DNA of 64,000 bases from assembly GCA_963771005.1 (NCBI GenBank), contig CAVYRO010000008.1, positions 197,029-261,028 of the forward strand. The letters are read 5' to 3'. This document shows, piece after piece, positions 2,433 to 28,089 of the stretch; within the stretch, counting starts at the first letter, position 1, and every line of letters starts with the position of its first letter. Under the pieces are notes generated by a model, which was given only the letters and a program-made list of their open reading frames with translations, was not told where the DNA came from and searched no databases. Both the position numbers and the translations under genes were made by a program. Source of the stretch: an uncultured Bacteroidales bacterium. GTDB lineage: Bacteria > Bacteroidota > Bacteroidia > Bacteroidales > GCA-2748055.

Positions 2433-2564
2433 GTGCCTAACGTACGAGGCTAAAAACCGGCGGTCAACAGTGCACCACCCCTTAACCTACTAAATTTATT
2501 TTTTTTTGCACTTTCCCCCGAAACTTCCTGTCGCACGCTGGTATTTTAGCCTTTGTTAGAGGCC
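2433..2564 (-). repeat. attC-like recombination site 2a (belongs to ORF-less cassette copy 1)
   Basis: GTGCCTAAC (2433-2441), GTACG, AGGCTAAAAACCGGCGG ... CGCTGGTATTTTAGCCT, TT, GTTAGAGGCC (2555-2564). Near-identical to site 6a. Confidence 0.8.
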
Positions 2565-2807
2565 GGTTGTATGCGCGCTGGCAGACTGCTGATCTACTTT
2601 CCGTTCCCTGTCAGCCCACTCCAACCCTTTGCATATTCCCGCCTTTACTCACTGCGAGCGATGGATAATTGAAAACAGAGCGAGCGGCCAACTGGCTTTT
2701 AAAATATTCTGCCCCAACCCTGAAGCACTAACCTTATTTACCCTTCCGTATGCCCGCAAACCGTGCGTGGGGTAGGATGTGCCTCATGATAAGGATTTTA
2801 CTCAACT
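2565..2807 (-). other. ORF-less cassette body, copy 1 (candidate noncoding RNA or regulatory cassette)
   Basis: About 243 bp with no ORF of 60 aa or more on any frame. It is GC-richer than neighbouring cassette genes, bounded by attC-like sites 2a and 2b, and repeated at 7033-7275. Confidence 0.6.
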
Positions 2808-2940
2808 GGCCTCTAACGTTTGACAATATGGCCAGTAAGGGATAGCGGGTGATTTCTTATCACGATACACGAAAAGTTGAAGCGTGCTACAAACCTTCGC
2901 AAACCACCGAAACCCTTATTGGCTATATTGTGTGTTGGCA
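2808..2940 (-). repeat. attC-like recombination site 2b
   Basis: GGCCTCTAAC (2808-2817), GTTTG, ACAATATGGCCAGTAAGGG ... CCCTTATTGGCTATATTGT, GT, GTTGGCA (2934-2940). It overlaps the last codons of the radical SAM ORF. Confidence 0.8.
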
Positions 2941-4425: not shown

Positions 4426-4553
4426 TGCCAACGTTTCGCGTATATGTTGCGTACCGTTTACGACAAACGTCGTAAACACGGTTAAGCATAAATTTACGAG
4501 AAATTATTGTAAAGACCGAGGACCCGGTATGCAACATATACGCTGTTAGGCAC
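4426..4553 (-). repeat. attC-like recombination site 3
   Basis: TGCCAAC (4426-4432), GTTTC, GCGTATATGTTGCGTACCG ... CGGTATGCAACATATACGC, T, GTTAGGCAC (4545-4553). Confidence 0.8.
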
Positions 4554-4878: not shown

Positions 4879-5016
4879 GTGCCTAACGTGCGGCGGTTAC
4901 CGTATTTGCCGGCATTCGGAGACGAAAACTTTCATCCGAAATTACTGCCGATTAAATGCTCAAACCTCTAAATACTCAAAAAACCAGGCAATTACGGTTA
5001 CCGCATGTTGTAGGGC
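4879..5016 (-). repeat. attC-like recombination site 4
   Basis: GTGCCTAAC (4879-4887) ... GGCAATTACGGTTACCGCAT, GTTGTAGGGC (5007-5016). Stems are GCGG..TTACCGTA..TTGCC / GGCAA..TACGGTTA..CCGC. Confidence 0.75.
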
Positions 5017-6034: not shown

Positions 6035-6171
6035 GCCCTACAACGTATGGCAATATGCGGAGGCCGGGATTTCGAAGCTCCAACTTATCAAACCGTTACA
6101 ATTTTGAGTAAATGTACAAAAGTTTAAAATACCCACATCCCCCGGCTTACGTATATTGCGTGTTGTGTTGC
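6035..6171 (-). repeat. attC-like recombination site 5
   Basis: GCCCTACAAC (6035-6044), GTATG, GCAATATGCGGAGGCCGGG ... CCCCCGGCTTACGTATATTGC, GT, GTTGTGTTGC (6162-6171). Confidence 0.8.
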
Positions 6172-6900: not shown

Positions 6901-7032
6901 GCAACACAACGTACGAGGCTAAAAACCGGCGGTCAACAGTGCACCACCCTTTAACCCACTAATTTTATTTTTTTTGCACTATCCCCCGAAACTTCCTGTC
7001 GCACGCTGGTATTTTAGCCTTTGTTAGAGGCC
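6901..7032 (-). repeat. attC-like recombination site 6a (belongs to ORF-less cassette copy 2)
   Basis: GCAACACAAC (6901-6910), then sequence near-identical to site 2a, ending GTTAGAGGCC (7023-7032). Confidence 0.8.
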
Positions 7033-7275
7033 GGTTGTATGCGCGCTGGCTGATTGCTGATTTACTTTCCGTTCCCTGTCAGCCCGCTACAACCCTTTGC
7101 ACATTCCCGCCTTTACTCACTGCGAGCGATGGATAATTGAAAACAGAGCGATCGGCCACCTGGCTTTCAAAACATTCTGCCCTAACCATCAACCACTAAC
7201 CTCATTTACCCTTCCGTATGTCCGCAAACCGTGCGTTGGGTAGGCTGTGCCTCACGATAAGGATTTTACTCAACT
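7033..7275 (-). other. ORF-less cassette body, copy 2
   Basis: Aligns with 2565-2807 along its whole length with scattered substitutions. No ORF of 60 aa or more. Confidence 0.6.
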
Positions 7276-7410
7276 GGCCTCTAACGCTCGCAGCTAGGCC
7301 CAGTGCGGGCTTTCGAAGCGATTTCTGTCAAACGAGTAAAAAGTTAATTTGAAAAAATGACATTTGCAAACCACTGAGCTGCCCGCATTGGGTTTAGCTG
7401 TTGTTAGCAA
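7276..7410 (-). repeat. attC-like recombination site 6b
   Basis: GGCCTCTAAC (7276-7285), GCTCG, CAGCTAGGCCCAGTGCGGGC ... GCCCGCATTGGGTTTAGCTG, TT, GTTAGCAA (7403-7410). Confidence 0.8.
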
Positions 7411-8119: not shown

Positions 8120-8253
8120 TTGCTAACGGTCGCGTGTATGAGTAGTGGCGGACTTCGAAGCACTTTCCAATCAAGATACACAGAATTTGATGCGAGGCAG
8201 AACACTCGAATACGCTACACCCCCCGCCATTACTTATACACGATGTTGGCGGT
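8120..8253 (-). repeat. attC-like recombination site 7
   Basis: TTGCTAAC (8120-8127), GGTCGC, GTGTATGAGTAGTGGCGG ... CCGCCATTACTTATACAC, GAT, GTTGGCGGT (8245-8253). It overlaps the last 8 codons of the methyltransferase ORF. Confidence 0.8.
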
Positions 8254-9132
8254 AGTTTTGTTTTTTATTAATTTGTATCTTATTGGATTCCAGTCGTTAT
8301 TGGCAGGTTTGTCTAATTTGAAATTGAAAAATAATATCTCGTTACCTTTTCTAATTTTATAAGCAGTATGATTAAATGAATACTCTTTGTTCTCGTATTC
8401 TTTATATAACTTTTTTATTTCAGGAACATTATCGTATGATACAATCCAATTAATCTCTTTTATACTTTTAATCTTTTCGCTTACAATTCTGTGATTTTCA
8501 TCACTATAATGATTCATATATAAAGTACTAGCCTTATGATAGTAAGGAGGGTCAAAATATAAAATGACATTTGAATTGTCAGTTTCCATTTCAATTTTGT
8601 CTATTAATTTTAATGCGTCTTTTTTATATAGTTTTATATCTTTCTTTCGAGAAGCAATTTTTCTAATTCTTTGCTTAATTTCTTCTTTGTTAAATCTACA
8701 GTCGATATTATAATCGCTTTTTTGCTCATATCCACCAATCGGCCCACCATTAATGATACCTGAATGATTTGTTCTATTTAAAAACAATGTAGAGAATCCT
8801 AACTCCAATAAACCAACTTTTTCTTTATAGCTTTGAACCTCTTTTAGCTTAAACCAATTTTCAATAGTAACTTCTGTTTTATCAATAAGTTCGCATAATT
8901 CTTCGCTCTTATTTAAAACAGAATACCAGAAAGCATAAATAGAACGGTCTTTATCATTTATAATCACTTTTTTTACAAAACCTTCAAATAGCAAGAACAA
9001 TGCAACAGATGCACCACCTGCATATGGTTCAACATATAAACCATTAATATTCCTGTCTATGCAAATTTTTGCAATAAATGCAGAGAGTTTGTTTTTCCCC
9101 CCTGGGTATCTAAGTGGCGAATAAAAAATCAT
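8230..9132 (-). CDS. Dam-family (D12 class) N6-adenine DNA methyltransferase
   Basis: 300-aa ORF with N-terminal PLRYPGGK, EPYAGGASV (SAM binding) and catalytic DPPY (ILYFDPPYYH). Confidence 0.85.
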   Translation of the reverse strand: MIFYSPLRYPGGKNKLSAFIAKICIDRNINGLYVEPYAGGASVALFLLFEGFVKKVIINDKDRSIYAFWYSVLNKSEELCELIDKTEVTIENWFKLKEVQSYKEKVGLLELGFSTLFLNRTNHSGIINGGPIGGYEQKSDYNIDCRFNKEEIKQRIRKIASRKKDIKLYKKDALKLIDKIEMETDNSNVILYFDPPYYHKASTLYMNHYSDENHRIVSEKIKSIKEINWIVSYDNVPEIKKLYKEYENKEYSFNHTAYKIRKGNEILFFNFKLDKPANNDWNPIRYKLIKNKTTANIVYK

Positions 9133-10514
9133 TTTCTTTTAAAATAATATTCAAGTATCTCTCCAATAATGAAAGAGTTTTTTAAAATTCCATCTTTAGC
9201 CACAGTAATGTTCCCATGTGCATACTTTGCAAGCATACCTTCAAGATTATTACCACCATCTAACCAATCAGTTGTCAAAGATAAATAGTTAACTGAGTCT
9301 TTTTCCAAACTCATTTCTTTTTTGGCAATCTTCAGAAAATCATTGTATAGTTGGTCTTTTTTTGATTTGTCGGAGTCACTTTCGTCAAAATACACCCTTG
9401 CGGCTACTTCGGTTATTAATCTCAAGGACATCCCAATTATTGGCAAAACTGTAGAATCAAATTCGTTTTTTTCATAAATGTTCAATATTGCACGATAAAG
9501 GTCATTGACTTTCCCTGCTTTTAGAGCCAAGGATTTGCCAAATAATGTATTGTTTTCTTTAGAAGTTGGAGTTTTTCTAGGAGGTAAAGTAATTGGAGTC
9601 TGTTCGGCTTTCTTTGTTCCCAATTTAACTGTTTCATTGCCAAATATGTCAGTCTTTTTATTTTTCTCTATATCGCTATTTACTTTAGCTACATTTTCAG
9701 ATTTTACACTTTCTAAATAACTTTTTATCTCAGGATTTTTGTTTAGTTCCCTTGTATCAACCGTATTGCCTTCAAAATCCTTCTTTTTTAAAACATTATG
9801 AATGATGACTTTCAGTTTATCAGGAAAGGTTTTATCTGTATAAGTTAACTCTCCATTTTCATCTGTGCTTAATCCAAATGTTTCCTTTGCAGGGCCAGTT
9901 GCTATAAACCTATAAAAAGTTGTAACATATCCTTGTCCAAGTACTTCATTAATTATTTCATTTGGTAAATCTAGTTTTCTAACAAATTCAGTAATCGCAA
10001 TCTTAATTTTAGTGTTCTGACTTTCAATACCTCTACGTTTTGAATAATTTATTTTTTCAGGTTCAAGCCATCCCACTTGATTGTTTCCTTTTGCGTGTTT
10101 CCTGTCAATATAGCGATAACACTGGTCTTTGTCTTCTGATACAAGACAATCAAGCAAAAAATTAGTGTCAATATTTATCGTTGATTTTTTATTTATTAGT
10201 GAAGTGTAGAACTTTTTATCAATATCAATAACCAACTCAGGATTTGATAATAATTTATATCCAGCAAGCCTTCTATTGCCTTCTAATACAATTAATTTAT
10301 CTGTTGAATCCCATACAACAACTTTTTCCAAATGTGGTAAGTCAATATCATTGACAATTTCGTCAACAAACTCTTTAAGCTTAAAGTTAGGTTTTGATAA
10401 AAAGTATTTAATAAGTTCTTTTTCGTCAGAATTATAATACTGGTCTGGAAATCGAGCATTCTCATCCCAAAGGAAAAGTTTTTCAATCGGTACTTTTTTC
10501 TCTGTAAAATTCAT
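9129..10514 (-). CDS. ParB/sulfiredoxin-fold N-terminal domain protein with a large uncharacterised C-terminal region
   Basis: 461-aa ORF. The N-terminal segment LIVLEGNRRLAGYKLL resembles the ParB-like nuclease-domain GxxR box. There is a 4-nt start/stop overlap with the methyltransferase gene. Confidence 0.55.
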   Translation of the reverse strand: MNFTEKKVPIEKLFLWDENARFPDQYYNSDEKELIKYFLSKPNFKLKEFVDEIVNDIDLPHLEKVVVWDSTDKLIVLEGNRRLAGYKLLSNPELVIDIDKKFYTSLINKKSTINIDTNFLLDCLVSEDKDQCYRYIDRKHAKGNNQVGWLEPEKINYSKRRGIESQNTKIKIAITEFVRKLDLPNEIINEVLGQGYVTTFYRFIATGPAKETFGLSTDENGELTYTDKTFPDKLKVIIHNVLKKKDFEGNTVDTRELNKNPEIKSYLESVKSENVAKVNSDIEKNKKTDIFGNETVKLGTKKAEQTPITLPPRKTPTSKENNTLFGKSLALKAGKVNDLYRAILNIYEKNEFDSTVLPIIGMSLRLITEVAARVYFDESDSDKSKKDQLYNDFLKIAKKEMSLEKDSVNYLSLTTDWLDGGNNLEGMLAKYAHGNITVAKDGILKNSFIIGEILEYYFKRK

Positions 10515-10583
10515 AATATTTCTATTTATAGAGTTCTTTTTGTCTAGTTAATATATTTAAAAAGAAACTTGTATTGACACCAG

Positions 10584-11351
10584 TTATTCTTTATTTTTAA
10601 CATAAATATGCTTAATATGTGTATTTTCTACTTCTTTCTCTTCTATATCAAAGTGAACATTCAAAGATTTAATTAGTGGAGTAAGTTTCGGGAAACCATA
10701 ATTACGAGAATCAAAATCAGGTTTCTTTTTCATAAGTAGCCCTCCAACTTCAGCAAGAAATGCCCATCCATTATCATCAGCCAAATCACCAATTGTCCCT
10801 TTTAATAACTTAATTAATTCATCATCAATTGTATCAATATCTATAGTTGTTGTTGTAACAGGAATACGAGATTGATTAGTTACAATACTTTCTGTTGTTT
10901 TTATTTCCGATATTCCAATAATTTCAATATAAATAAATTTGTCACATGCAACTATAAAAGGATTTGGAGTCTTTTTTTCACCAATCCCAACAACTAACAT
11001 TCCAGACTCCCTTAATCTAATTGCCAATCTTGTAAAATCACTATCGCTTGAAACAAGACAAAATCCGTCAACTTTCTGGCTATGCAATATATCCATTGCA
11101 TCAATAATCATAGCTGAATCTGTTGCGTTTTTTCCTGTTGTATAACTGTATTGTTGAATTGGTGTTATTGCGTGTTCTAATAAAGCTGGCTTCCATCCTG
11201 ATACAGTTGGTTTTGTCCAGTCTCCATAGATTCTCTTAATAGTTGGAATTCCAAGTTTTGCAATTTCATCTAGCATCCCCTTAATGTTTGAATAAGGAAT
11301 ATTATCTGCATCAATTAATACTGCTAATTTTAAATCATCTTTTTGTCTCAT
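10584..11351 (-). CDS. NYN-domain (PIN-like RNase) protein with C-terminal OST-HTH/LOTUS domain
   Basis: 255-aa ORF. LAVLIDADNIP...GKNATDSAMIIDAMDIL...FCLVSSDSDFTRLAIRLRESG is typical of the NYN fold. The C-terminal GWAFLAEVGGLLMKKKPDFDSRNYGFPKLTPLIKSL is LOTUS-like. Confidence 0.75.
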   Translation of the reverse strand: MRQKDDLKLAVLIDADNIPYSNIKGMLDEIAKLGIPTIKRIYGDWTKPTVSGWKPALLEHAITPIQQYSYTTGKNATDSAMIIDAMDILHSQKVDGFCLVSSDSDFTRLAIRLRESGMLVVGIGEKKTPNPFIVACDKFIYIEIIGISEIKTTESIVTNQSRIPVTTTTIDIDTIDDELIKLLKGTIGDLADDNGWAFLAEVGGLLMKKKPDFDSRNYGFPKLTPLIKSLNVHFDIEEKEVENTHIKHIYVKNKE

Positions 11352-11370
11352 GGTTGTACTTTTTTAAATT

Positions 11371-11506
11371 ACCGCCAACGGTTGGTGTATGAGGCGTTGG
11401 GCATTTCAACGCACTTCACTGTCAAACCGCTGATATGTTTATAAAATGTACTCATGTTTCAATTAACCACATGCTGCCCAATGACTTATACACATTGTTG
11501 TGCGGT
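11371..11506 (-). repeat. attC-like recombination site 8
   Basis: ACCGCCAAC (11371-11379), GGTTG, GTGTATGAGGCGTTGGGCA ... TGCCCAATGACTTATACAC, ATT, GTTGTGCGGT (11497-11506). Confidence 0.8.
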
Positions 11507-11631
11507 CGTACTTTTTCTTCAGTCAGGGTGGGCAAAGGCATACTCTTTGACAAGTTTTGGTCGTGGGGTTGACTTTTTGCGCGACTTGGCAATGTGTATG
11601 GCTTTAGCGAGGGCATTTCTATTTCTCCGAT

Positions 11632-13479
11632 TTATGGATTTAAAATGTCATATAAAATATCACCGGCTTTCGTGAGATTTCTCAACAAGTCATCTATTGT
11701 TATTTCTGCAACTCCTCTGTCGTTATAGGTCACATTTAGTCCAATAATTGCTTTATCAATTGTAAAAGGACTTTCCTTTATTTTAGTTAATCTATCACCA
11801 CCAGGATATGCTTCAGGGGGTACTCCTGTCGGTTTGGCAAACTGAACTCCTTCTCGTGTCCAGTCTTTAAAATGTATTGTAACCGGACTTTTTGTATTTG
11901 TGCCGTTATTAGTTACAGAGTAAATATTCTTTGCAATTTCGATTTTTGCTTGGTAATTAATCGCAGGTAAATTCAAATCAAACATGCTTCCTTTTGCAAC
12001 AAGTAATGTCCTCTCAGGTAGCGTAATATTTTTTAAGGCATCAATAACTTTAAAAGCAGCTAGAAGGTCATTTTTGTATATCGGACTTTCCAGGTCGTTG
12101 TGCGACATCGGATTAAAAAGAATGCTTTTGTATAAATACAAACTTTCAATTAAAATCATAGGCGGTTCAATTCCTAAATCGTCATAATATCGTTTAAGGT
12201 TGTCTATCAGCGTTTCAAGATTTGGTGGTTTTACTAAGCCTTTTAACCCTTCACCGACAGAATAGGTTGCCAACAATTTTTCGTGAAATAAATTTTCACA
12301 TTCTTTTCGCAAAGCATTAGCGCAAGCAGGGAAATCATAAACATTAAAGTAGGCTTTTGCTTTTTCAAAATTGGTCTTGTCTTGATGAATAATTTCGGGT
12401 CCTTCAGTTCCTTTGTAAAACTCAACAAATTTCCAGTCCCCAAGATTTAACTTCGCAACTTCATACCAGTGGCGGTCATAGGTTGTAATAAAAACCTGAA
12501 AATCTTTAAATACTTTATCTGCTTCGGCAACTTCTTTTTCTTGAAGCAATTGTAATAATTTCAACCTGTTTTCATTATCCAGACCGATTAAAATATCATC
12601 TAAGAATAAAGGTTTTATCTTCCTTGAAAAAGGACTTTGTTTAACAATCGCACCTAAGAAAATACTTATGGCAATAGCTGAAAGCTTTGCTTCATTTAAA
12701 ACAAACTGAGGATTATGGGCATCTAAATAAATTCCAGCACTTTCAACCAAAAGCAAAATCTTACTTTCAGTGATATTACCCCATTGATTTGTTGTTATTG
12801 TTCTACGTTGGAACTCAATTTTCAAGTCAGGGATTAGTTTTTCTAAAATTTTATTTACTGTTGGGGCTAAATAGTCAGGATTCCCGGTTAAAAATAATTT
12901 GTTAATCGCATTGTTAAATGCAATCGCTTTTTGTTCTACCGAAGCTTTCTTTTGCCGGGCAAAATAAAATTCATGACCACTGCCGAAAGGCTTATTACTT
13001 TCTTCTGCTACATCTGTCCAAAGTTTACCTAATTCAATGCCACCTGTTATAGTTTGAGATTTGAAATGTTTTAGTACACCATTTATTACAAGGTCGAAAA
13101 CATTGATTTGTTTACCAATTTTAATGTTGTGAACTGACAGCAAGTGTTTGTAGGTTATAAAACTCTTTAATCGGTTTGCATCTGTAATTGCTGGTGTTGC
13201 AGTAGTTTTTGTTGTATCGTTTAAGGTAAATTTTGCACCACCTTCAAATTCTACTTCTATTGAACAATCAGTTCCACCGTCATTAAGAAATAAGTTACGA
13301 AGAGCTGACATATCTATGTTTTCAACACTGGATTGAAAGAAGTCTTTTAGTGCATAATAAAACGAGCTTTTACCGCTTCCGTTTTCTCCATACATGAAAA
13401 CATTTTTACCACCAATTGGAATTTTCTCTTCCTTGGTAAATGCTTTATATTTATCAATGGTTACATTTTGGATTCTCAT
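11632..13479 (-). CDS. ABC/SMC-type (RecF-like) ATPase
   Basis: 615-aa intact ORF with Walker A GENGSGKSS near the N-terminus and Walker B/D-loop LFLDDILIGLD. Its ATG overlaps the methyltransferase stop (ATGA at 13476-13479). Confidence 0.7.
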   Translation of the reverse strand: MRIQNVTIDKYKAFTKEEKIPIGGKNVFMYGENGSGKSSFYYALKDFFQSSVENIDMSALRNLFLNDGGTDCSIEVEFEGGAKFTLNDTTKTTATPAITDANRLKSFITYKHLLSVHNIKIGKQINVFDLVINGVLKHFKSQTITGGIELGKLWTDVAEESNKPFGSGHEFYFARQKKASVEQKAIAFNNAINKLFLTGNPDYLAPTVNKILEKLIPDLKIEFQRRTITTNQWGNITESKILLLVESAGIYLDAHNPQFVLNEAKLSAIAISIFLGAIVKQSPFSRKIKPLFLDDILIGLDNENRLKLLQLLQEKEVAEADKVFKDFQVFITTYDRHWYEVAKLNLGDWKFVEFYKGTEGPEIIHQDKTNFEKAKAYFNVYDFPACANALRKECENLFHEKLLATYSVGEGLKGLVKPPNLETLIDNLKRYYDDLGIEPPMILIESLYLYKSILFNPMSHNDLESPIYKNDLLAAFKVIDALKNITLPERTLLVAKGSMFDLNLPAINYQAKIEIAKNIYSVTNNGTNTKSPVTIHFKDWTREGVQFAKPTGVPPEAYPGGDRLTKIKESPFTIDKAIIGLNVTYNDRGVAEITIDDLLRNLTKAGDILYDILNP

Positions 13480-16400
13480 TTTAAAGCTTCTTTTATTATT
13501 CTCACTTCTTCAATGCTGTCCAGAGTCTCAATGGCATATTTTACCGGGTGGTTGTCGTCATACAAACGTTCAAACTCACTTTGTACAATTGCCAATTTTT
13601 CTTCCGGACTCATGGTCTCATTTATTGGTTTTAGATTACCTAAGTGTTTGATTATTTCTTTATCAGCTGATTTGAGTTCTTTGGGGAAGTAAAGTTCATA
13701 AACTATTTCATTTATCAATTCAAAGAAAAACTGTTCATACAATTCATTTAATGAAAAGGAAAAAATGCAATACTGCCTAATGACTATTATTAAATTAGCA
13801 ATATCAGAATCATATGAAGGCAACGGAAAATTCCGAATATCAGTCACAAGAATTTTAGGAAAATCACCTTTTGTTGCTTTAGGTGAAGCATTAAAATGAT
13901 AGAAGGTTGCAATAGTTGAATTTAGAATTCCCCATAACCATTCAAGTGAATAACTGGTATTTTCCTTATTTATAATCGAAATAATTTGTGGGTCATTAAC
14001 CAGATGTTCTTCAACAATGCAGGCAATTATTGTTGGATTAGTAATTTCTCTAACTAAAACTCTCTTCCTATTAAAGTACCTTGGCTCGATATAGCCAGCA
14101 AGGTGTTTGCCATACCATATGTATGAATCAGCTTTCGAGTAACTGTATTTATTCAGGTTCCTACCTTGAATTTCTTGTTCATATTCTGATGATATTTTTT
14201 CAGTACTATGCCATTCTCTATTGTCAACAATAGAATTTCCATTTTCTTTTCCATAGGTTTTTATTAAATCACTCCTTCTGTATGGAATATAACCTTGCGA
14301 TATGTCAAACAAATTTTCAAGATTATTTCTTTTTTCTGTTATCCTCTTTATAGTTTCGACAGTAGTTGGGCTTAATTTAAATGCTAATCCCCAATTTTTA
14401 TTGAAAGATGTGATTTCTTCTTTTGAAATTTCTAATCTTGGTCTTGAAATTAATTCTATGAAACTATTTGCCTCATTGGTATTTCGATATCCAATACTAA
14501 TTGTTTCTTTAGTTAAACCTTTAGACCAATTGAAAATTGTATTTCTTACAACTGCACTCTCAAAAAACTTAAAGTTTGTACAATCCAAAATTTCATTTAC
14601 TGTCCACCTATCTAAAATCTTATTTCTATAATTTTCAGCAAATACATTAAACAATATGGAATTAGGAATTATAAAGGTATTGCATCCATTATTGTGTAAA
14701 AGCTTGAAAGAAAGTTCTATGAAAAAATAGTATATCTCATAATCAGGGACTTTTTCAAATTGCTTCAAAACTATCTTTCTGTAATCATCTTTTATTGATA
14801 CACCATATGGTGGATTTCCAATCACCACATCAAAACCGCCCTTTTCGTGCCAAACCTCTGAGAAATAGAGTTTGAAATCAAAGTCGATTTTATATCCTGC
14901 AAATTCTTCAATCTCATCTAATAGTTGTCTGATTTTCTTGTTTATCTGTAGGCGAAGTTCTTTCTTTTTAGTTTCATTTGTTTCATCATAAAAAAGTGGT
15001 TTTAATCTTTCTATTTCTTTTAGAAGTTCATCATTTGGTAAAACATCTGTTGGCTTACCAATTAATGAGTTGCCGCAAACAATTTTATAATCCAGATTTG
15101 GCAGGGTTTCAATGGGGTCAAGGTCATCTTCGTCGACCACAAGCGAAAGCCACAAACGCAAACGGGCAATATCAATTGCTGAAGCATCAATATCTACTCC
15201 GTAAATGCTTTCTTGAATAATATGGCGTTTTAATCGATAGATATAACGACTTTCGTTGATACTCTCGTGAAACTGAAAACCAAAGCCATCTAATTTTTTA
15301 TTCAAATAAGCATTGCTTAAATGCGGCATTAATACTAATTGTGCATTTACTAATTCATGTAACAAACCCACCGGAAAAGCCCCCGAGCCAATAGCAGGGT
15401 CGCAAATTCGTATTTCTGTTAATTTCCGGTCAATCAACTCTGCATTATTTCTAATGCTTTCAGGAATTTGGTATTTATAATCTTTGGTTTCTGTTCCTTT
15501 GTTTGCAACACGCTGGTCGTTTTCCAACGCAAAGTTTCCTTCTCGAATATAAACTTCTATGTCGTCTTTCTTAACTTTTTCTTCCAGTGCATTGTCCAAA
15601 TAATGTATCAGGCTTTCCTGGCACATATAATGCACAATTTCACGCGGAGTATAAAACGCGCCATTACCTTTTCGATCGTTTATCATCGAAAAGATTTTCA
15701 AAAACTTTTCCCAACATTTCCGGGTCAACAGCTACTTCTTTGTCCAGCGGCTCGTCTTCTTTTATGGTAAAGTTGTAGCGGTCAAAAACATCCAAAACTC
15801 CGGTTCCCTTATCTCCGGCTTTGTTTTTTTCTTCATTACTGAAATAGATTTTCGGGAATGGTAATGTTGGCAGTTTCCCAATCGTATTCTGCTTCAAACA
15901 ATCCTCCATTTAAAAATGGAATCCGGCAATCAAATCGTTTGTAATAAGAGTTTTCATTGTTCCGTTCTTTTGCCAATGCTTCGTAAAACAAGGGTTGCAG
16001 AATAATCTTTAAAGTAATTTTGGTTTTTTCTTTGAGCTTCTTCAAACAATTCCTGAATAAAACGTTTTTTTCCTTTTCCCCAATGTTCGTTTTGTGGTAC
16101 ACCCAGCCAGCCTTTTTTCTGCAAAAAATAGAGAAATACAATTTGCCCGAGTAGTTTTTTTGTAAATCGGGTGTTGTCAATATTCGCCTTTTCTAATTCG
16201 GATTGAATGTGCGTGTCGTTTTCAAAATGTTCGTACAGTTTAACATACAAATCTTTGTATTGACCGAAAAATTCATCGGTGACTTTTTCAATGCTAAAAG
16301 CATTTTCAATTTCTTCAATGGTAGGATTATTGCATATGTTTTGAAGTAATGGCAGAATTTGGTTTTTGCGTGTATGTGCTTTTTCATATTCACCCACCAG

Positions 16401-16867
16401 AAAGGAATACCTTTTTGCAGGTGTAAATTCTTTTCGGGTTTTTACCTTTTGTTTTTCTTCATCTAAGATACGACTGATGTTCGAGTTTAATGAACGAAAA
16501 ACGCCAGTCGGCTCCATCATCTTCTTTTGAATAAAAAGCAACAAGAGCATAATCTTTTTCAAATTTGCTCAGGTGTTTAATCACAAAATTTCGTAATGCG
16601 GTTCTGGCTCGTTCCAGTTTCGCACCGCTTTTCACTTCAACAATTAAAACGTCCAGCGCTTCGCCTTCCGGGTCAATGTACTTGCCAATTCGTTTGTAGG
16701 TGTTGATGTGTTCTTTGTGGTCGTCCCAAATATATTGTCCGCTGTAGACATTGCTTTTGGGTTCAATATCATTCAGCAAGTTTTTGACAAACAGTGTAAA
16801 CCGGCTTTCATCAAACCTTTACTTGAATGTTTCTTCGATTAAGTGATATGGCAGTATTTTTATCCAT
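13476..16867 (-). CDS. Large Eco57I/type IIG-like N6-adenine DNA methyltransferase; N-terminal third fragmented by frameshifts
   Basis: The intact 750-aa C-terminal ORF carries CDPAIGSGAFP (SAM motif I) and VVIGNPPYG (motif IV). The fragments 15664-15909, 15836-16180, 15954-16562 and 16459-16779 read as one continuous N-terminal region (e.g. QIVFLYFLQKKGWLG). The proposed ATG at 16867-16865 (MDKNTAISL...) comes from manual translation. Confidence 0.7.
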
Positions 16868-19800
16868 AATTATTTAATAAGGTATCCTGATAAAATGACT
16901 TCACGTTTTTGAAAAGCTTTTTTCGTGCTGTACTGTTTTCAATGGCAATTGCTCGAATGTGTTTTCTTAAAATATTGAGTGCTTCCAATGGGTCGATGGT
17001 TTTTTCCAATTCATTTTTAATGTCCCGGGCAGTGCGTTTTGCCATTGTACCCAGCTACTAAAATATTTTTCACACTTTCTAATAAATTCATCGTCCGAAT
17101 CGGTAAAGCTTTTGACAGTTTTTAAAGATTTATCTTTTAAGCGTTTTTCGATGTATTTTACATTTGAACGCCCGCCGGCGAGTTTTTTGCGGTTCATCGC
17201 CAATGGTGGTGTCCAACTCAAAGCGAGCCCTGTTTGTCTGTAAAAGATGGTAATAATCGTCAGGGATTTTTGCCCTTTTGGTTAAAGGTTTACATTCCAG
17301 ATTATAAACTGCATCAAAAAAAGTAATTTCATCTGAGCTGCCCTTTTTGTTGAGATAGAATTTTTTGAGTTTACCAATCCTGAAAAAAGTAAGTAGTTGA
17401 TTGGCTTCAATTTTTGACTTTTATAAATCCTGAACGGGCTTTTTTAGGTAGGTTTTTTATTTTTTGAAATAAATCAGGATTTTCATCTCTTATTTTTCGC
17501 ATCATTTCCAGATACTTCAATTCCGAATCGCCTTCTTCATCTTCTCCGGTGTAGGCCTTTTTGTTATTCAAGGTGTTAAACAATTCCTGACTTCCAATTT
17601 CTTCGCCATCGGTCAGGTATTTGGCATCTTCACCCAAAATATCATGAAACATCTGGATTTTATTGGTGATGTTCATTTCCAATCCAAGATGTGCATCCGA
17701 TTGTGTTGTTGGGAAGAAATTAAAAATATGCACATTTGTCAAATGCTGACTTCCCAAACGATTCACACGTCCGGCTCTTTGTAGCACTCTGGTTGGATTC
17801 CAGGGCAAATCGTAATTGATAACCACATTTGACCGATGAAGGTTAATTCCTTCAGCCAAAACATCGGTGGCAATCAGAATTCTCAAATCATTAACTTGTT
17901 CTTTTGGTTTTTCTATTTGGGTCGTAATTGGCTTGAATAATATCGCGTGAAACAGTGTGATTTGATGTTAGTTTCAAATCTGAGTGACGTCCGCCTTTAC
18001 TGGAATAAAACATTACCTATTTAGGAAATTCGTTTAGCAAAGCTTCATAAATGTAATCACCTGTTTCTTTTGATTCTGTGAAAATTACAAGCTTATTGTT
18101 CTATTCAAGTGATTTGGTTTTCTTTGATTCAAAAATGAACTGTTCAAGTTTCGGGTCTGAGTCAACAGTTCTGCCATAATTCTTTTACTTGTTTAAAACT
18201 TTTAAATCAAATTCAAGTTTTGTTTTAAAGTCTTTTTTAAAGTCTTTTGAATCATATTTGTTGGCTTTGTCTTCTTCAACCAATTCATCGAGTTTATCAA
18301 TGTCATCATTTCTCAAGCAGGTCGTAAACATCTACTTTTTTGCTGATATAAACTGTTCCAGAATCGAACATTGAGATAAAGTTTTCATAAGAAAGAATAA
18401 AACGGTCAACACTTTGCCGAAAAGCGTAAAAACTACTTTCCAAACGTTTAACAAGAATTCCTTTCATAAATCCTCCAACATTTCGCTGTTGTTGTTTTTC
18501 AAACTCACTTAGCTGCTTTATTTCCAATGTAAAAAAGCAACGGCGTGTATCTGGAATAGGTAAAGTGTGTAGGAGTTTTATCGTTTGCTTTAAAAGTGTT
18601 TTCAAATTCACCTTCGTATTCATATACAATTTTCTGCGGGTCTTTCACATTCAGGAAAAACCAAACCTTGTTTAAGAATATCGCCTTTAAAATAAGTAAC
18701 AACATCTGACCGTGTTCTTCGAACCATGACATATCTTAAAATGTTGTTTTTAATTTCGTTTGAAACTTCTTTAATGAGAATTTTATAAGCAGGGTCATCT
18801 TTTTCAACTTTCTTTAGCTTGGTTCTTAATGAATTAAAAAACTTTTCAAGATTTGGCACTCCGGGAATAGTTGACTGTTTTGGAGCCTGAAATAATTTAA
18901 GTTGTGCAAAAATATCATCAACCGTATTGTTTAAAGGAGTTGCAGTAACAAGAATTACTTTTTTGCCCCGGCAAATATCCAATAAGGTTGGCATATGATT
19001 GTGTGTTTTCATTTCTGAAACGGTGTGCTTCATCCACAACAATATAATCGTATCGTTCTAATCCTTTTTTAATGATGTGTTCCAGTTTACCAAGCGATTC
19101 AACTTCAAAACTTCGGATACCAAAATCAAATAAAGAATCTTTCCAGTAATCCTTTCAACACAGGAGGACAAACAACTAAAGTTCTGCCCTGAATTTGTTG
19201 AAGAAGTAAAGCTGTAATAAATGTTTTACCAAGACCAACAACATCAGCAAGAAAAACGCCATTGTATGCTTCCAGAATTTTCTTTGCCTGAATTGCAGCC
19301 TGACTTTGATATTTTAATTTCATAAATCCATCTGGCAGAAATGGGTCAAACTGGTCTTCCAGATTTATGTCTTCTTCCAAGTATTCATAAATTAATTTCA
19401 GATAAAATTCGTATGGAGTAATTTGATCATTTAACCATGTTTTTGTTGTAATTGTGTCAACAAAATCATCTGAAATATCAACAGATTCATTCCAAAGCTC
19501 ATTAAACTGGTTTTCTGCAAATTTAACATCTAATGTTTTCCTCAACTCAACATTAAATTCTCGGTTTGCCACAAAGCCAGATTCAGAAAAATTACTTGAA
19601 CCAGTAATTACAAAACCATAATCTCTGTCTTCAGGATGGAATCTGCCTATGTAAACTTTTGCATGAATATTTTTTGATGGATAGGCTCTTATTTCTAATT
19701 TTTTTCCATTTCCTCCAATTGCTTTATCATCTGCTGGATTTTTACATTCTTGTTGTAAAAATTCAATAAATTTCCGAATTCCAATTTCTAAGCTTGTTAT

Positions 19801-20143
19801 CATTTTCATCACTTGTTTCAATTTCAGTTTTCAGGTTTGCCTGAAATTGTTTTTTTGTTCTTTGATGCGATTCAAAATCAATCATTCCGATTTGCTCGTG
19901 ATATTGCAAAATATCATAAGAATCTCTGTCAACGCTTAAACCAACAAGTATTCTGACTTTTTCAACAGGTTCAAGTGATTCATACAATTGATAAAAACCA
20001 CTTGCCCTGAAATAACCAACAAGTACATCAAAAAGTTGAGTGTCTTTTAGTGTTGCTTTAAATCGATTTAATAAACTACTTCCATTTTCATTTGTGAAAA
20101 ATGTCAAGTCAGTTTGGTCAATATTATTTGTCTTCTTATCCAT
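16860..20143 (-). CDS. Phospholipase-D-like nuclease domain fused to SNF2-family helicase; heavily fragmented (8 or more frame breaks)
   Basis: 19763-20143 and 19126-19821 give the PLD region ([18 protein letters not shown]) and helicase motif I ([10 protein letters not shown]). 18620-19042 gives [11 protein letters not shown]. 17407-17886 gives helicase-C motifs ([31 protein letters not shown]). Short fragments continue to a stop at 16860. Confidence 0.7.
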
Positions 20144-20156
20144 TAAATTCAGTTAT

Positions 20157-20438
20157 TTACTCGATTGATTTAATTGTTTCTTGTAAACCAATCTTCAAAT
20201 ATTCCAACTCGCCCAGTTCTGTTAAAATCATTGATTTGATAAATTCAATTTGAATTTCCTTTTCCGGTTTGTCAAGTGTATCGGATAGGATTGGAATCAT
20301 TTCGGTCGTTGCACGTCTTTCATTGCGTTCAATCTTGCTTAACAATGAAGTATCAATGTCAAGTGCAGCAGCAACTTTTCTAAGGGGTAATTCTTTGTCT
20401 TCTCTTGCTTTCCGTAAGTATTCACCAAATGATTTCAT
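20157..20438 (-). CDS. XRE-family helix-turn-helix transcriptional regulator
   Basis: 93-aa ORF. FGEYLRKAREDKELPLRKVAAALDIDTSLLSKIERNERR is a canonical HTH_3-type segment. It is the first gene of the 9.1-kb cassette. Confidence 0.8.
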   Translation of the reverse strand: MKSFGEYLRKAREDKELPLRKVAAALDIDTSLLSKIERNERRATTEMIPILSDTLDKPEKEIQIEFIKSMILTELGELEYLKIGLQETIKSIE

Positions 20439-20603
20439 CTTGTCAATTTATTTTAGACGATTCTGTCCAAAAATACATCTTTTTTATTTTGTTTTTCCAT
20501 CAGCGGGTCGGAAAAGATTAAGCTCTTTTGGTTTTTTTAGGGTTGGCATTTTGTGTCGGCAAAAAACCAAATGTGCTTAATGTGCGTGGGGCTTTTTCAG
20601 TAT

Positions 20604-20741
20604 GCCGCACAACGTTTGACAATATGGCAAGTGGCGGTTTGCGGAGCGCGTCTGTATCCACCGTTGAAAAAGTTTGAAGCGGGCTACAATGCCCGAATTT
20701 ACTACTATCCCCGCCATTTGCTATATTGTGTGTTAGGGGGC
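20604..20741 (-). repeat. attC-like recombination site 9
   Basis: GCCGCACAAC (20604-20613), GTTTG, ACAATATGGCAAGTGGCGG ... CCGCCATTTGCTATATTGT, GT, GTTAGGGGGC (20732-20741). Confidence 0.8.
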
Positions 20742-22055: not shown

Positions 22056-22190
22056 GCCCCCTAACGGTGGCAATATGCAAAGTTTGGGATTACGGAGCGA
22101 TTCACTATCAAGCTACACGGCACTTGATGCGAGCCACAACCCTTGAATAACCTATTAAACCCCAATTTTGTATATTGCATGTTGTGTGCC
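22056..22190 (-). repeat. attC-like recombination site 10
   Basis: GCCCCCTAAC (22056-22065), GGTG, GCAATATGCAAAGTTTGGG ... CCCCAATTTTGTATATTGC, AT, GTTGTGTGCC (22181-22190). Confidence 0.8.
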
Positions 22191-22957: not shown

Positions 22958-23093
22958 GGCACACAACGTTTGATGGTATGGTGTCGTGCGGGATTACGAA
23001 GCGATTTCCTATCAGTTTACACCGACTTTTTTTACGAGCCACAAACGCTCGAAAACCTCTGAAACCCGCATGCACTATACCATGTGTTGGCGT
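22958..23093 (-). repeat. attC-like recombination site 11
   Basis: GGCACACAAC (22958-22967), GTTTG, ATGGTATGGTGTCGTGCGGG ... CCCGCATGCACTATACCAT, GT, GTTGGCGT (23086-23093). Confidence 0.8.
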
Positions 23094-25067: not shown

Positions 25068-25256
25068 AGATTACGCTTAAATAATTTGTAAGGTATAAAA
25101 TCTTTGTTCAGCGCGTAAGGAAAAAATAGCTCTTTTACCAACAGAAGAAATTGCAAGTGGGTCAGGGTTGGTAAATGTGCTATTTGTGCGCAGGGTTTTC
25201 ATAGCTTTTATTTTATCGAATTACGAAATTTTCCTTCGGAGCCGCTGACAGCATGA

Positions 25257-25386
25257 ACGCTAACGGTCACCGGTAAGTTTCGTTGCCAGGGTTGTTGTGC
25301 TTGTTAAAATCATTAATTATCGTTAATCCGAATTTACGAATTCGGAGCGAACCTGGCAATGAAATTTACCGGATGTTGTGTGGCGT
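25257..25386 (-). repeat. attC-like recombination site 12 (first attC after the attI-like site)
   Basis: ACGCTAAC (25257-25264), GGTCA, CCGGTAAGTTTCGTTGCCAGG ... CCTGGCAATGAAATTTACCGG, AT, GTTGTGTGGCGT (25375-25386). Confidence 0.8.
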
Positions 25387-25966: not shown

Positions 25967-26030
25967 GACACACAACGTTTTTATATACGCAATATTACGA
26001 TATATAGATGTATATCGTAATATTGCGTAT
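25967..26030 (-). other. attI-like primary recombination site
   Basis: ACACACAAC (25967-25975), GTTTT, then a perfect 21-bp inverted repeat TATACGCAATATTACGATATA (25983-26003) / TATATCGTAATATTGCGTATA (26010-26030) around TAGATG. It has only one AAC/GTT box, no second box on the recombinase side, and is the last site before the recombinase gene. Confidence 0.6.
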
Positions 26031-26265
26031 AATATCTCCTGTCTGAAACTTTTAAAATTTTTCTGAACTACACGATGATCCTGTTTCCCTTTCCTTGTCC
26101 ACCCCCCCAGTGCTTTTCCTGTTTTTTGATTTATATGTCACTGTAAAACACTATCTTAAGGAAACCCGGTCGAATAAATCCTAAATGCTTCTTTCATTAC
26201 AGGTCCACTTAAAGCTAAAGGAAAAATTCCGAATTTCCAACCTTTGGCCGGAATTTCCTCCAACC

Positions 26266-27855
26266 TCACCCGATATCCAACTCATCAAAAGGATTTTTTT
26301 CATCCGTGTTTTTACGGCTGGTTACATGGGTGTATATTTCGGTGGTCTTGATGCTGCTGTGTCCCAACTTTTCCTGCAATGCCCTTATGTCCTTCGTCAG
26401 TTCGTAATCGTGCGTCGCAAAAGTATGCCTTACTTTATGAGGAGTTATGTCCTTATCGACGCCGGCCCGCACGGCTGCACGCTTCACAACTTTCTCAACA
26501 CTCCCTCGTGAATATTTCCCGCCGTTCATTCCTTCAAAAAGATATACCGAAGGCTTGTACCGTTCCATATATTTCTCGTAAAAAGGATCAAATTTCGCCG
26601 GAATGGGCACATAACGCTCCTTCCTTCCCTTGCCCATTATCAACAATTGCCGCCTTTCCCAGTCAAAATGGTCAAGTTTGCAGTCCAGGACTTCGGCTAA
26701 TCTCATCCCGGTAGCATATAATATTATGATCAGGGTCTTATGCTTGATGTTTCGGGTAACCTCAATCATCTTCTTTATCTCATCGGTATTCAGGAACTTC
26801 GGTAAAGTTTTTCCCAATTTGGGCCGGTCAATGAAATAAAATTTTCTTTCCCCGCCTTTGACTTTCTCATAATAAAACTTAATGGCATTGATGGCCAGAT
26901 TCAGGGTTGATTCAGAAACATTCCTCTCCACATTTAGATACATCAGAAATGACCTTATCTCATCTTCCGTGATCTTATCAATCTCTACTGTGTCGAAAAA
27001 ATTAATAAACTCCGTAAACATGGAAGTATAATTCCTGCAGGTATTCTTACTGTACCTTAACTCTTTCAGCTTGAAGATATACGTATCCGGACAGGGCCGG
27101 AAATTTTCAATCTCATCCCTTCTCTTTCTTTTTTTAACGGGTCCCCCCTTTACATCCTCTATGCAGGAAAAGGATTTTCCTAAAGCCGTGATAATGTTCT
27201 GCAATTGCCTGAGAAACAGTTCAGAAAAAGGGATTGAAAAGCATTTGTTCATTTTGTCATACTTCCAGTATGGGAATTCTTTGATTTTCTTGATTAAATC
27301 TTTGTTGTACTTACCGATAATCTTTAATCTGCCCGATGCAGTCCTGACGATCCGGATATCGGTATCAAATGCCGGGGACGAAATTTCATCTTCCTTCATT
27401 AATTCCGCATCCTTTAACCTGGTTCCAAAGTAGGATCGGATTTTATCAAGATTAGTTCCGAAATTTGTCACCTGCCAAAGCCTGTTCGTCCAATCCCAGT
27501 TGCTGTATCTAATTAATTCCTTGATGAACCGGAGGTCAGCTTCATTTTTCTCCATTTTAACCAGGATCTTTTTTTCAAAAACCTGCATAAGAACTGGCTC
27601 TGAACCTTCCGGATCCCCCTCCTTTTCCTTAGGTTTATCTGTAGAGGAGGCACTTTTTTCCTGATATTCAAGATTTGGAAACATCCTCTTTATCTCACTG
27701 AAGGCTTCACGCGTATACGGAATATGCCACGATCTATACGTCTTGCTCCAGGTACAACCTTTGATCGTCTTTATTTTTTCTTTTGTGGAAGTATCATAGG
27801 GGAATTTCAGAAGTATACGATACTCTCCGTGATGCAGGATTTTTTCCAGTTCCAT
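26266..27855 (-). CDS. Tyrosine site-specific recombinase (XerC/D-like catalytic domain) with a 240-aa N-terminal extension of three related modules
   Basis: 529-aa intact ORF. Catalytic motifs are ATGMRLAEV (Arg), GKGRKER (Lys), HKVRHTFAT (HxxR) and LGHSSIKTTEIYTHV (His, Tyr). The SAM-like core-binding segment is YSKNTCRNYTSMFTEFINFF...STLNLAINAIKFYY. Only 58 aa lie between GKGRKER and HKVRH by my count. Confidence 0.9.
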   Translation of the reverse strand: MELEKILHHGEYRILLKFPYDTSTKEKIKTIKGCTWSKTYRSWHIPYTREAFSEIKRMFPNLEYQEKSASSTDKPKEKEGDPEGSEPVLMQVFEKKILVKMEKNEADLRFIKELIRYSNWDWTNRLWQVTNFGTNLDKIRSYFGTRLKDAELMKEDEISSPAFDTDIRIVRTASGRLKIIGKYNKDLIKKIKEFPYWKYDKMNKCFSIPFSELFLRQLQNIITALGKSFSCIEDVKGGPVKKRKRRDEIENFRPCPDTYIFKLKELRYSKNTCRNYTSMFTEFINFFDTVEIDKITEDEIRSFLMYLNVERNVSESTLNLAINAIKFYYEKVKGGERKFYFIDRPKLGKTLPKFLNTDEIKKMIEVTRNIKHKTLIIILYATGMRLAEVLDCKLDHFDWERRQLLIMGKGRKERYVPIPAKFDPFYEKYMERYKPSVYLFEGMNGGKYSRGSVEKVVKRAAVRAGVDKDITPHKVRHTFATHDYELTKDIRALQEKLGHSSIKTTEIYTHVTSRKNTDEKNPFDELDIG

Positions 27856-28089
27856 GGCTTTGAATTTTTAAAGGTATTAATGATGACCCTGGTCTTCTAT
27901 TTACCACTTAATGGAAAAAACAGGAAAATCTCGCCCTGCCTGATTAGCTTTTTTTCAAAAAATTTTGCTTTAACCTTTCTGGATTTTGAAGTCATACTGC
28001 AGTACTAAGTATGCAAGTAAGCCCCATGCAATCTCATTTCTGCTTCAGGCAATCTTTTGCTCGATTACCAGCCATCAGGTCACAGCGAT

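Follow-up and report, generated by a model that had tools for sequence, protein, structure and literature searches.

Two fixed G·T positions in the attC-type sites of an integron-like cassette array from an uncultured Bacteroidales bacterium

Introduction

In the attC sites of classical integrons, the bottom strand folds more stably than the top strand, by 2.12 kcal/mol (7.6%), and carries more G:T mispairs (1.24 on the bottom strand versus 0.39 on the top strand). These mispairs have been proposed to favour recombination of the bottom strand; no positional specificity was reported for them, and the sites also carry bulged bases (Nivina et al. 2016, Nucleic Acids Research (NAR), PMC5027507). 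The extrahelical bases lie on the arm opposite AAC. As summarized in a paper citing MacDonald et al. (2006), the I2 helix of the integrase recognizes attC and the extrahelical bases serve as structural landmarks. Furthermore, the acquisition of the I2 helix is regarded as the innovation by which a recombinase of duplex DNA came to act on single strands (Escudero et al. 2020). The present work addresses an array of attC-type sites, exemplified by the site called site 7, and the adjoining tyrosine recombinase, which is devoid of I2. Both are carried by a 64,000-nucleotide (nt) stretch of DNA, hereafter the window, from an uncultured Bacteroidales bacterium (GenBank assembly GCA_963771005.1, contig CAVYRO010000008.1, positions 197,029 to 261,028).

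Almost no complete integrons have been found in the Bacteroidota. Among complete RefSeq genomes of Bacteroidetes, a survey found one complete integron (Salinibacter), and an earlier survey found only integrases without cassettes (IntegronFinder 2.0 preprint). A literature search covering sources other than subscription-only papers found no description of cassette arrays associated with I2-less or HARP-fused recombinases.

A previous reading of the window from its letters alone (the sequence-only reading) had claimed that the stem mismatches of these sites are systematically G:T on the + strand, so that only this strand, the presumed bottom strand, can fold well. For classical attC sites, the core of this idea is in the literature, with an effect of the same size as here. 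The analysis reported below indicates where the bias comes from: it stems entirely from two fixed positions of the stem, located 15 and 10 nt 5′ of GTT.

Organization of the attC-type sites

Site 7 is an attC-type recombination site located at the 3′ end of one gene cassette in a chromosomal integron-like array (Table 1). Its two arms pair gap-free over 19 bp, the sole mismatches being G8140·T8235 and G8145·T8230. Fifteen such sites, all in the same orientation, were found between 838 and 25377 (+) by a detector that searches for AAC, a short spacer, a stem, a loop, the other stem arm, a short spacer and GTT, and that penalizes G·T and A·C equally. They correspond to sites 0 to 12 of the sequence-only reading, whose quoted arm sequences were all found as written. 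AAC and GTT are invariant (15/15 sites), and the 7-mers that include them fit RYYYAAC / GTTRRRY only loosely (TGCTAAC / GTTGGCG in site 7). The unpaired central spacer comprises 4–6 nt after AAC and 0–3 nt before GTT in every site, an asymmetry that had been noticed previously. All the cassette open reading frames (ORFs) that match a family lie on the − strand, and the + strand is therefore complementary to the coding strand, as also proposed earlier.

In 11 of the 15 sites, the stem has no gap and its irregularities are mainly the G·T pairs at offsets −10 and −15 from GTT (20 G·T versus six other mismatches). The remaining four display an irregularity near −12 to −15; for sites 0 and 11, the predicted fold has a bulge of one base, located on the 5′ arm that carries AAC. 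The extrahelical bases that classical attC sites carry on the other arm are thus not a feature of the window sites.

Two positions account for the strand bias

Mismatches were counted over the 20 positions nearest GTT in the 15 window sites. This gave 222 Watson-Crick pairs, 25 G·T or T·G pairs and 24 other mismatches, none of which is A·C or C·A. Four sites whose register is irregular (sites 0, 2, 6 and 11) contain 18 of these 24. The count was then extended to 42 distinct sites from 14 sources, all adjoining homologous recombinases and registered by their distance from GTT. Their strand was assigned from the asymmetry of the spacer and from the position relative to the recombinase gene, never from the mismatches. 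The types of mismatch are far from even in this set too (71 wobble pairs versus nine A·C; binomial p = 4e-13), as the sequence-only reading had predicted.

The distribution of these wobble pairs along the stem is highly uneven. At offset −15, the pair is G·T in 36 of the 42 sites, another mismatch in four and a Watson-Crick pair in two, so that this position is mismatched in 40/42. At offset −10, it is G·T in 22/42 and Watson-Crick in 20/42. At all the other offsets to −20 taken together, wobble pairs and A·C or C·A are about equally frequent (13 versus nine; p = 0.52). The polarity at both offsets is constant, G always belonging to the AAC arm and T to the one facing it. Hence a diffuse tolerance of the stem to wobble pairs was rejected as the source of the bias. 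In two sites of the related locus L085, a one-base bulge on the 3′ arm replaces the −10 mispair.

The rest of the stem behaves differently from these two positions. Compensatory changes were found in 17 of the 18 stem pairs, and 92.9% of the cells are paired versus 55% in shuffles and 34–41% in slid registers, a percentage that is inflated since the detector requires pairing, which leaves the ratio of G·T to A·C unaffected. These data point to a stem conserved as a structure and not as a sequence.

Folding of the two strands

With DNA parameters, the mean folding energy of the 15 window sites is −20.8 kcal/mol for the + strand versus −18.4 kcal/mol for the − strand. The + strand is the more stable in 13/15 sites (Wilcoxon p = 0.005). 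In site 7, the values are −19.3 kcal/mol (z −2.06) for the + strand and −15.1 kcal/mol (z −0.11) for the − strand, on which the same stem is broken by two 1×1 internal loops; this strand folds less well but still folds. Over 48 sites, the bottom strand is the more stable in 38, by a mean of 2.0 kcal/mol (p = 8.5e-6), and the predicted folds contain 2.8 G:T on the bottom strand versus 1.6 on the top strand. The mismatches therefore do favour folding of the + strand, in sites that are indeed attC-like. The stronger statement that only one strand can fold well goes too far: the + strand folds better, but the other strand still folds, with a gap of 2.4 kcal/mol or about 12%.

Replacing G·T by G·C in silico lowers the asymmetry between strands from 2.44 to 0.37 kcal/mol, and the mispairs thus account for almost all of it. 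The same replacement would stabilize the bottom strand by 5.2 kcal/mol per site and the other strand by 7.2 kcal/mol. As G·C would make the + strand more stable still, what is conserved is a mismatch and not stability, and a role of G·T as a mere stabilizer was rejected.

Cassette boundaries and cassette content

All along the array, the box that follows a site and the box that precedes the next one are reverse complements of each other (for example, GTTGGCGGT after site 7 and ACCGCCAAC before site 8). Such a chain of complementary boxes is the signature of circular cassettes inserted at a common crossover point. The position of this point is indicated by a cassette of 379 bp, devoid of any ORF of at least 80 amino acids, that is present in two copies. 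The identity between the copies starts at AAC and ends at AACG, which places the crossover in the box reading AAC on the + strand, i.e. R′ in integron terms. Cassette boundaries thus lie where a bottom-strand mechanism of the classical kind would place them, as the sequence-only reading had suggested. The site of this duplicated cassette has an unusual short stem (AGGCTAAAA) with an irregular distal part. The array sites share their loop sequence as well as their arms.

The cassette that ends with site 7 extends, site included, from about 8127 to 11378 (3.2 kb). Globally, the cassettes carry ParE and HepT/MNT toxin-antitoxin pairs, DNA methyltransferases, a NYN nuclease-like protein and a decayed helicase/methylase system, contents that are typical of sedentary integrons. 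A single 9-kb cassette (11500–20610) encodes a SMC-like ATPase, an Eco57I/MmeI-type methylase and a PLD/SNF2 helicase, the latter being split into several short ORFs (15954–20143). An intact counterpart of this broken helicase system (a helicase of 1102 amino acids and a MmeI-like methylase) is found in the array of the related locus L081, and the content of the 9-kb cassette looks like a decaying defence system.

From 1 to about 26000, the window has a G+C content of 31–36% and all the ORFs are on the − strand. From 28000 on, G+C rises to about 50% and the flank contains genes of the ECF-sigma, FecR and SusC types, as is typical of Bacteroidota. The sharp step near 28000 is consistent with cassettes originating from low-G+C donors.

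Two other kinds of element were considered for the sites. A known RNA family, or an element acting as RNA, was rejected: a permissive Rfam scan of 1–28500 gave no match at any site, and the + strand is antisense to every cassette gene. Likewise, REP/BIME or IS200/IS605-type repeats were rejected, as no HUH (RAYT/TnpA) transposase family was found among the ORFs scanned and the sites are tied to a tyrosine recombinase. A second family of hairpins is found at the start of three cassettes (746–807, 20517–20581 and 25124–25185), 30–80 nt past the crossover box of the preceding site. It has two fixed non-Watson-Crick stem positions, and its − strand consensus is ACGCACAtt..GCACaTTT..stem-loop..AAAAGAGC. 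No Rfam family matches it, and it might represent a leader RNA or an element regulating the cassettes.

Table 1. Features of the window related to the cassette array, site 7 and the recombinase
Feature	Position	Strand	Description or basis
Sites of the array, first to sixth (AAC to GTT)	838-963, 1563-1683, 2439-2557, 2815-2936, 4430-4547, 4885-5009	+	Detector scan
Sites of the array, next five (AAC to GTT)	6042-6164, 6908-7025, 7283-7405, 8125-8247, 11377-11499	+	Detector scan; site 7 is 8125-8247
Sites of the array, last four (AAC to GTT)	20611-20734, 22063-22183, 22965-23088, 25262-25377	+	Detector scan
Duplicated 379-bp cassette	2439-2817	+	No ORF of at least 80 amino acids; second copy at 6908-7285, 93-96% identical
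Site 7, complete attC-type site	8121-8251	+	Bottom-strand reading, from R′ box TGCTAAC to R″ box GTTGGCG
Site 7, AAC triplet of R′ box, putative crossover point	8125-8127	+	Complementary-box chain; ends of the duplicated cassette in equivalent AAC boxes
Site 7, 5′ side of unpaired central spacer	8128-8132	+	GGTCG (5 nt); site layout, folding
Site 7, 5′ stem arm	8133-8151	+	CGTGTATGAGTAGTGGCGG, 19 nt; G8140 and G8145 are the G partners of the mispairs
Site 7, variable terminal structure	8152-8223	+	72-nt loop, partly conserved among array sites
Site 7, 3′ stem arm	8224-8242	+	CCGCCATTACTTATACACG; T partners of the mispairs: T8230 at offset −15 from GTT, T8235 at offset −10
Site 7, 3′ side of unpaired central spacer	8243-8244	+	AT (2 nt); site layout, folding
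Site 7, GTT triplet	8245-8247	+	
Site 7, R″ box	8245-8251	+	GTTGGCG; corresponds, in reverse complement, to the left box of site 8 (ACCGCCAAC at 11377)
Rest of site 7 cassette	8248-11378	−	ORFs; boundary by the duplicated-cassette rule
D12 adenine methyltransferase ORF, last gene of site 7 cassette	9132-8230	−	Stop codon inside site 7
Unknown ORF, site 7 cassette	10514-9129	−	
NYN/OST-HTH protein ORF, site 7 cassette	11351-10584	−	
attI-like site	25974-26031	+	AAC at 25974-25976, 7-nt spacer, perfect 21-bp hairpin TATACGCAATATTACGATATA at 25984-26031, no GTT after it
Tyrosine recombinase	26266-27855	−	529 amino acids, co-oriented with the cassettes

The recombinase and the attI-like site

The tyrosine recombinase encoded next to the array has a Xer/IntI-like core (residues 259–515; Pfam Phage_integrase, E = 5.8e-37). 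Its catalytic set (R385, K409/K412, H473-x-x-R476, H499 and Y508) shows little or no variation among 61 homologues. Of the protein families, XerA_Arch matches best (219.1 bits, cut-off 220); the scores against the XerC and XerD models are far lower than required, 186 (cut-off 335) and 173 (cut-off 330), and the gene adjoins a cassette array and has no dif context. The match with the IntI model TIGR02249 reaches 180 bits (cut-off 265) and is split at model position 181. Among solved structures, Pyrococcus XerA (PDB 4A8E) gives a colinear alignment of 129.5 bits and VchIntIA (2A3V) gives 126 bits. The alignment with VchIntIA is broken, residues 179–245 of VchIntIA (66 residues) lying opposite residues 428–451 of the query (23 residues), and the same break is found in four relatives. 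According to these alignments, the recombinase is devoid of the IntI-specific I2 insertion, located between the hairpin of the catalytic lysine and box II. The array was taken for a classical integron in the sequence-only reading; this identification does not hold, as the integrase lacks this insertion and is not a canonical IntI.

Residues 1–233 comprise three beta-beta-alpha-beta-beta-alpha HARP-like repeats, as seen in an AlphaFold model of the first 250 residues (predicted local distance difference test score, pLDDT, of about 85–97). The Pfam HARP model PF07443 matches the window protein only at E = 0.57, and two homologues, P0027 and P0038, at 25.3 and 26.4 bits (cut-off 25). Foldseek searches with the N-terminal model gave weak local matches with the N-terminal domain of XPB (probability 0.97–0.98, E 0.15–0.28) and with the HARP domain of SMARCAL1 (4O66; probability 0.80, 26% identity).

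About 1,000 database proteins match the recombinase at E <= 1e-3. Among the best 120 of these, almost all are full-length (about 520–590 amino acids) and 37–61% identical; where their source names them, they are labelled XerD or site-specific integrase.

The stop codon of the recombinase gene is 230 bp away from the attI-like site. The AAC of this site corresponds to G|TT on the coding strand and to the start of the first cassette. The same layout, i.e. a TATACGC/TAAACGC hairpin, 6–7 nt and GTT, follows the homologous genes of the related loci L082, L085, L002 and L084.

Related loci

Arrays are present downstream of recombinase homologues in at least 11 other loci (designated here by L numbers). 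The G·T feature of the sites spans the Flavobacteriales, Cytophagales, Chitinophagales and Bacteroidales in the Bacteroidota, as well as the Calditrichales in a second phylum, with recombinases that are 27–45% identical. In the Calditrichales locus (L014), the array is upstream of the recombinase gene and divergent from it, and here too G·T is found on the strand complementary to the one that encodes the cassette ORFs. The bias is therefore linked to the cassettes and not to the recombinase gene. This locus has the classical divergent gene order, all the other array-linked recombinases being co-oriented with the cassettes.

The number of HARP-like repeats of the array-linked recombinases varies from none (L014, L035) to one (L008, L019, L020, L024, L026) and three (the window and L015). 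Sites of L014 (no repeat) and L026 (one repeat) carry both mispairs, which weakens the idea that the repeats read the mispairs; given this variation from zero to three, they are not required for such reading.

The metagenome contigs L081 and L082 carry an identical recombinase and identical upstream genes, but their downstream genes differ from the attI point onward (about 11810). This difference is a strain-level turnover at the attI point. The cassettes of L082 encode a type I restriction-modification system and DarT/macrodomain, those of L081 small ORFs, a GyrI-like protein and a helicase/methylase system. In L085, two genes within the cassette array, one for an IS91-type transposase and one for a second tyrosine recombinase, are in opposite orientation (14943–17016).

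The locus L035, from the Ignavibacteriota, carries nine sites (11093–17292) whose stems are perfect over 11–12 bp, contain no G·T and bear a branched loop. The adjoining recombinase is I2-less and reaches 250.7 bits on the IntI model (cut-off 265). This array is a different variant and was left out of the mismatch counts. The Vibrio locus L069 was included as a classical control; the pattern scan gave no sites in it, and the comparison with classical sites rests on the literature.

Many metagenome-assembled contigs (L001, L002, L004–L007, L009, L010, L012, L013 and L017) end a few hundred bases past the recombinase gene. Such ends would be expected if a repeated and variable array breaks the assembly, and surveys of draft genomes would then undercount arrays.

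Proposed mechanism and competing explanations

The attC-type sites probably act as a folded single strand, in which the fixed G·T mispairs would mark the substrate strand and thereby the orientation of the cassette. According to this model, the + strand would fold into a hairpin, recombinase monomers would bind the paired AAC/GTT boxes at its base together with the adjacent stem, and cleavage would occur in the 5′ AAC, as in classical integrons. The mispairs would keep the helix of the + strand continuous, as near-isosteric wobbles whose T belongs to the arm facing AAC. On the − strand, the same positions would form disruptive C·A mismatches of reversed polarity, making the two strands non-equivalent. 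This marking would operate partly through stability (about 2 kcal/mol) and probably also by providing geometric landmarks, the mispairs taking the role of the bulged extrahelical bases of classical attC sites. In classical attC sites, a reconstruction of the published numbering from attCaadA7 would place the extrahelical bases about 9–17 nt from GTT, in agreement with the names G16 and T23. The mispairs are in the same zone of the stem, and a bulge replaces the −10 mispair in L085, which led us to regard the two as functional equivalents.

Various observations weigh against this model, besides the inflation of the pairing percentage mentioned above. About half of the sites lack the −10 mispair, and four of the 15 window sites have a stem irregularity in place of a clean G·T at −15. 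The energy difference between strands is modest and both strands fold. Seven bottom-strand C·A were counted, six of them at offset −6 in Flavobacterium and Chitinophagales loci (L015, L020 and L081); a C·A thus conserved in a subgroup implies that not every conserved mismatch favours the bottom strand. Furthermore, recombination of single-stranded DNA is proposed by analogy with IntI, for a recombinase devoid of the very domain held responsible for it (Escudero et al. 2020), and a protein could in principle distinguish the two half-sites in duplex DNA by their fixed G and T. The sites of the subgroup (e.g. L015, 13962–13812) combine C·A at −6, G·T at −15 and a Watson-Crick pair at −10.

One alternative explanation is duplex recognition, in which the arms would be non-identical half-sites, like those of XerC and XerD at dif, the difference between G and A would set directionality and the G·T would be incidental. 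It agrees with a recombinase whose core is Xer-like and without the I2 helix, and with the conservation of −15 and −10 as bases, together with their neighbours (A-G-T on one arm and A-T-T on the other). However, it is improbable: the remaining stem varies in sequence yet keeps its complementarity through the compensatory changes described above, a bulged base stands in for the −10 mispair in the two L085 sites, and the arms are separated by a 70-nt variable loop unlike any duplex core site. In addition, a fixed asymmetric position would read as a + strand wobble only one time in six by chance, and both positions do. There is also little reason to favour the idea that the mispairs were selected to weaken the hairpin in mRNA, where it has its C·A version, and to limit cruciform extrusion, the bottom-strand hairpin staying usable. 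As RNA, the coding-strand version is indeed 4.5 kcal/mol weaker than the + version, and having G·T instead of G·C costs both strands stability (5.2 and 7.2 kcal/mol). Nevertheless, a mismatch anywhere in the stem would suffice for this purpose, which leaves unexplained the fixed positions in 14 sources and the constant polarity with G on the AAC arm. Such weakening is compatible with the use of a folded, mispair-marked + strand and does not exclude it.

Two further explanations appear even less plausible. As this recombinase is distinct from IntI, it need not obey the classical rule, and the coding (−) strand might be the one recombined, its C·A mismatches being flip-prone equivalents of extrahelical bases; C·A mismatches open more easily than G·T. 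This is very unlikely, since the ends of the duplicated cassette lie in + strand AAC boxes, the AAC of the attI-like site is on the + strand too, cleavage at the 5′ AAC of the − hairpin would place the boundaries in the other box, and the − strand is the less stable fold. Finally, all the sites could go back to a single founder repeat in which two G·T positions were present by chance, in keeping with the loop and arms that the sites of the array share, like the attC sites of sedentary integrons. Hardly any credit can be given to mere inheritance, as neighbouring positions have turned over through all four types of Watson-Crick pair while −15 stays G·T, and as the feature is found in several orders and a second phylum with such divergent recombinases. 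None of these alternatives explains the fixed position, the fixed polarity and the free covariation together.

Implications

The arrays display every other hallmark of integron cassettes and adjoin recombinases without I2; therefore they offer a direct test of whether mispairs alone can determine the choice of strand. They also suggest that an integron-like capture of genes, with toxin-antitoxin and restriction-modification cassettes, operates in the Bacteroidota. It is conceivable, though somewhat doubtful, that these systems constitute a separate lineage of integron-like gene capture, widespread in the Bacteroidota and neighbouring phyla, in which fixed G·T would have replaced bulged bases for the choice of the bottom strand. 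In such systems, the HARP-like repeats, a fold with which repair proteins bind DNA structures, may assist in capturing the folded strand. If so, single-strand hairpin recombination would have arisen without the I2 helix or would predate it. Integron surveys, which require the IntI-specific domain, may miss such systems, which would also provide a second, simpler type of structure-specific recombination site for engineering.

Comparison with known systems

Like classical attC sites, the sites described here have AAC...GTT inverse core boxes, an imperfect inverted repeat, an unpaired central spacer and a variable terminal structure. They follow an ORF on the coding strand, with the boundary in the R′ box, and they have a bottom-strand bias of about 2 kcal/mol (2.12 published, 2.0–2.4 here) with an enrichment in G:T on the bottom strand. 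They differ from them by the near absence of bulges, as classical sites carry 2–3 bulged extrahelical bases opposite AAC whereas 11/15 window stems are bulge-free, by G·T located at two fixed distances from GTT, and by a more asymmetric central spacer (5–6 versus 0–3 nt).

Like IntI, the recombinase is a tyrosine recombinase encoded beside an attI-like site and a cassette array, and its sequence and predicted fold are as close to VchIntIA as to any Xer. An integrase co-oriented with the cassettes is reportedly a feature of the ‘inverted’ integron group (Boucher et al. 2007). Unlike IntI, the recombinase has no I2 helix for docking the extrahelical bases, falls short of the IntI cut-off and has about 250 additional N-terminal residues with three HARP-like repeats that are found in no described IntI, its relatives having zero, one or three of them. 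It resembles the Xer recombinases by its best family match, XerA_Arch, and by its colinearity with Pyrococcus XerA 4A8E. It is distinguished from them by a cassette array and an attI-like site instead of dif, by its N-terminal repeats and by 120-nt hairpin sites instead of a 28-bp duplex.

The attP(+) of the CTX phage, recombined by XerCD, also involves an I2-less Xer-type recombinase acting on a folded strand, with stem mismatches that define the substrate (cf. PMC3442271). The CTX site differs in being used once, at dif, and in having no cassette array, attI-like site or dedicated recombinase. With respect to all these systems, what is new here is the combination of G·T at fixed positions, mostly bulge-free stems and an I2-less recombinase with N-terminal HARP-like repeats.

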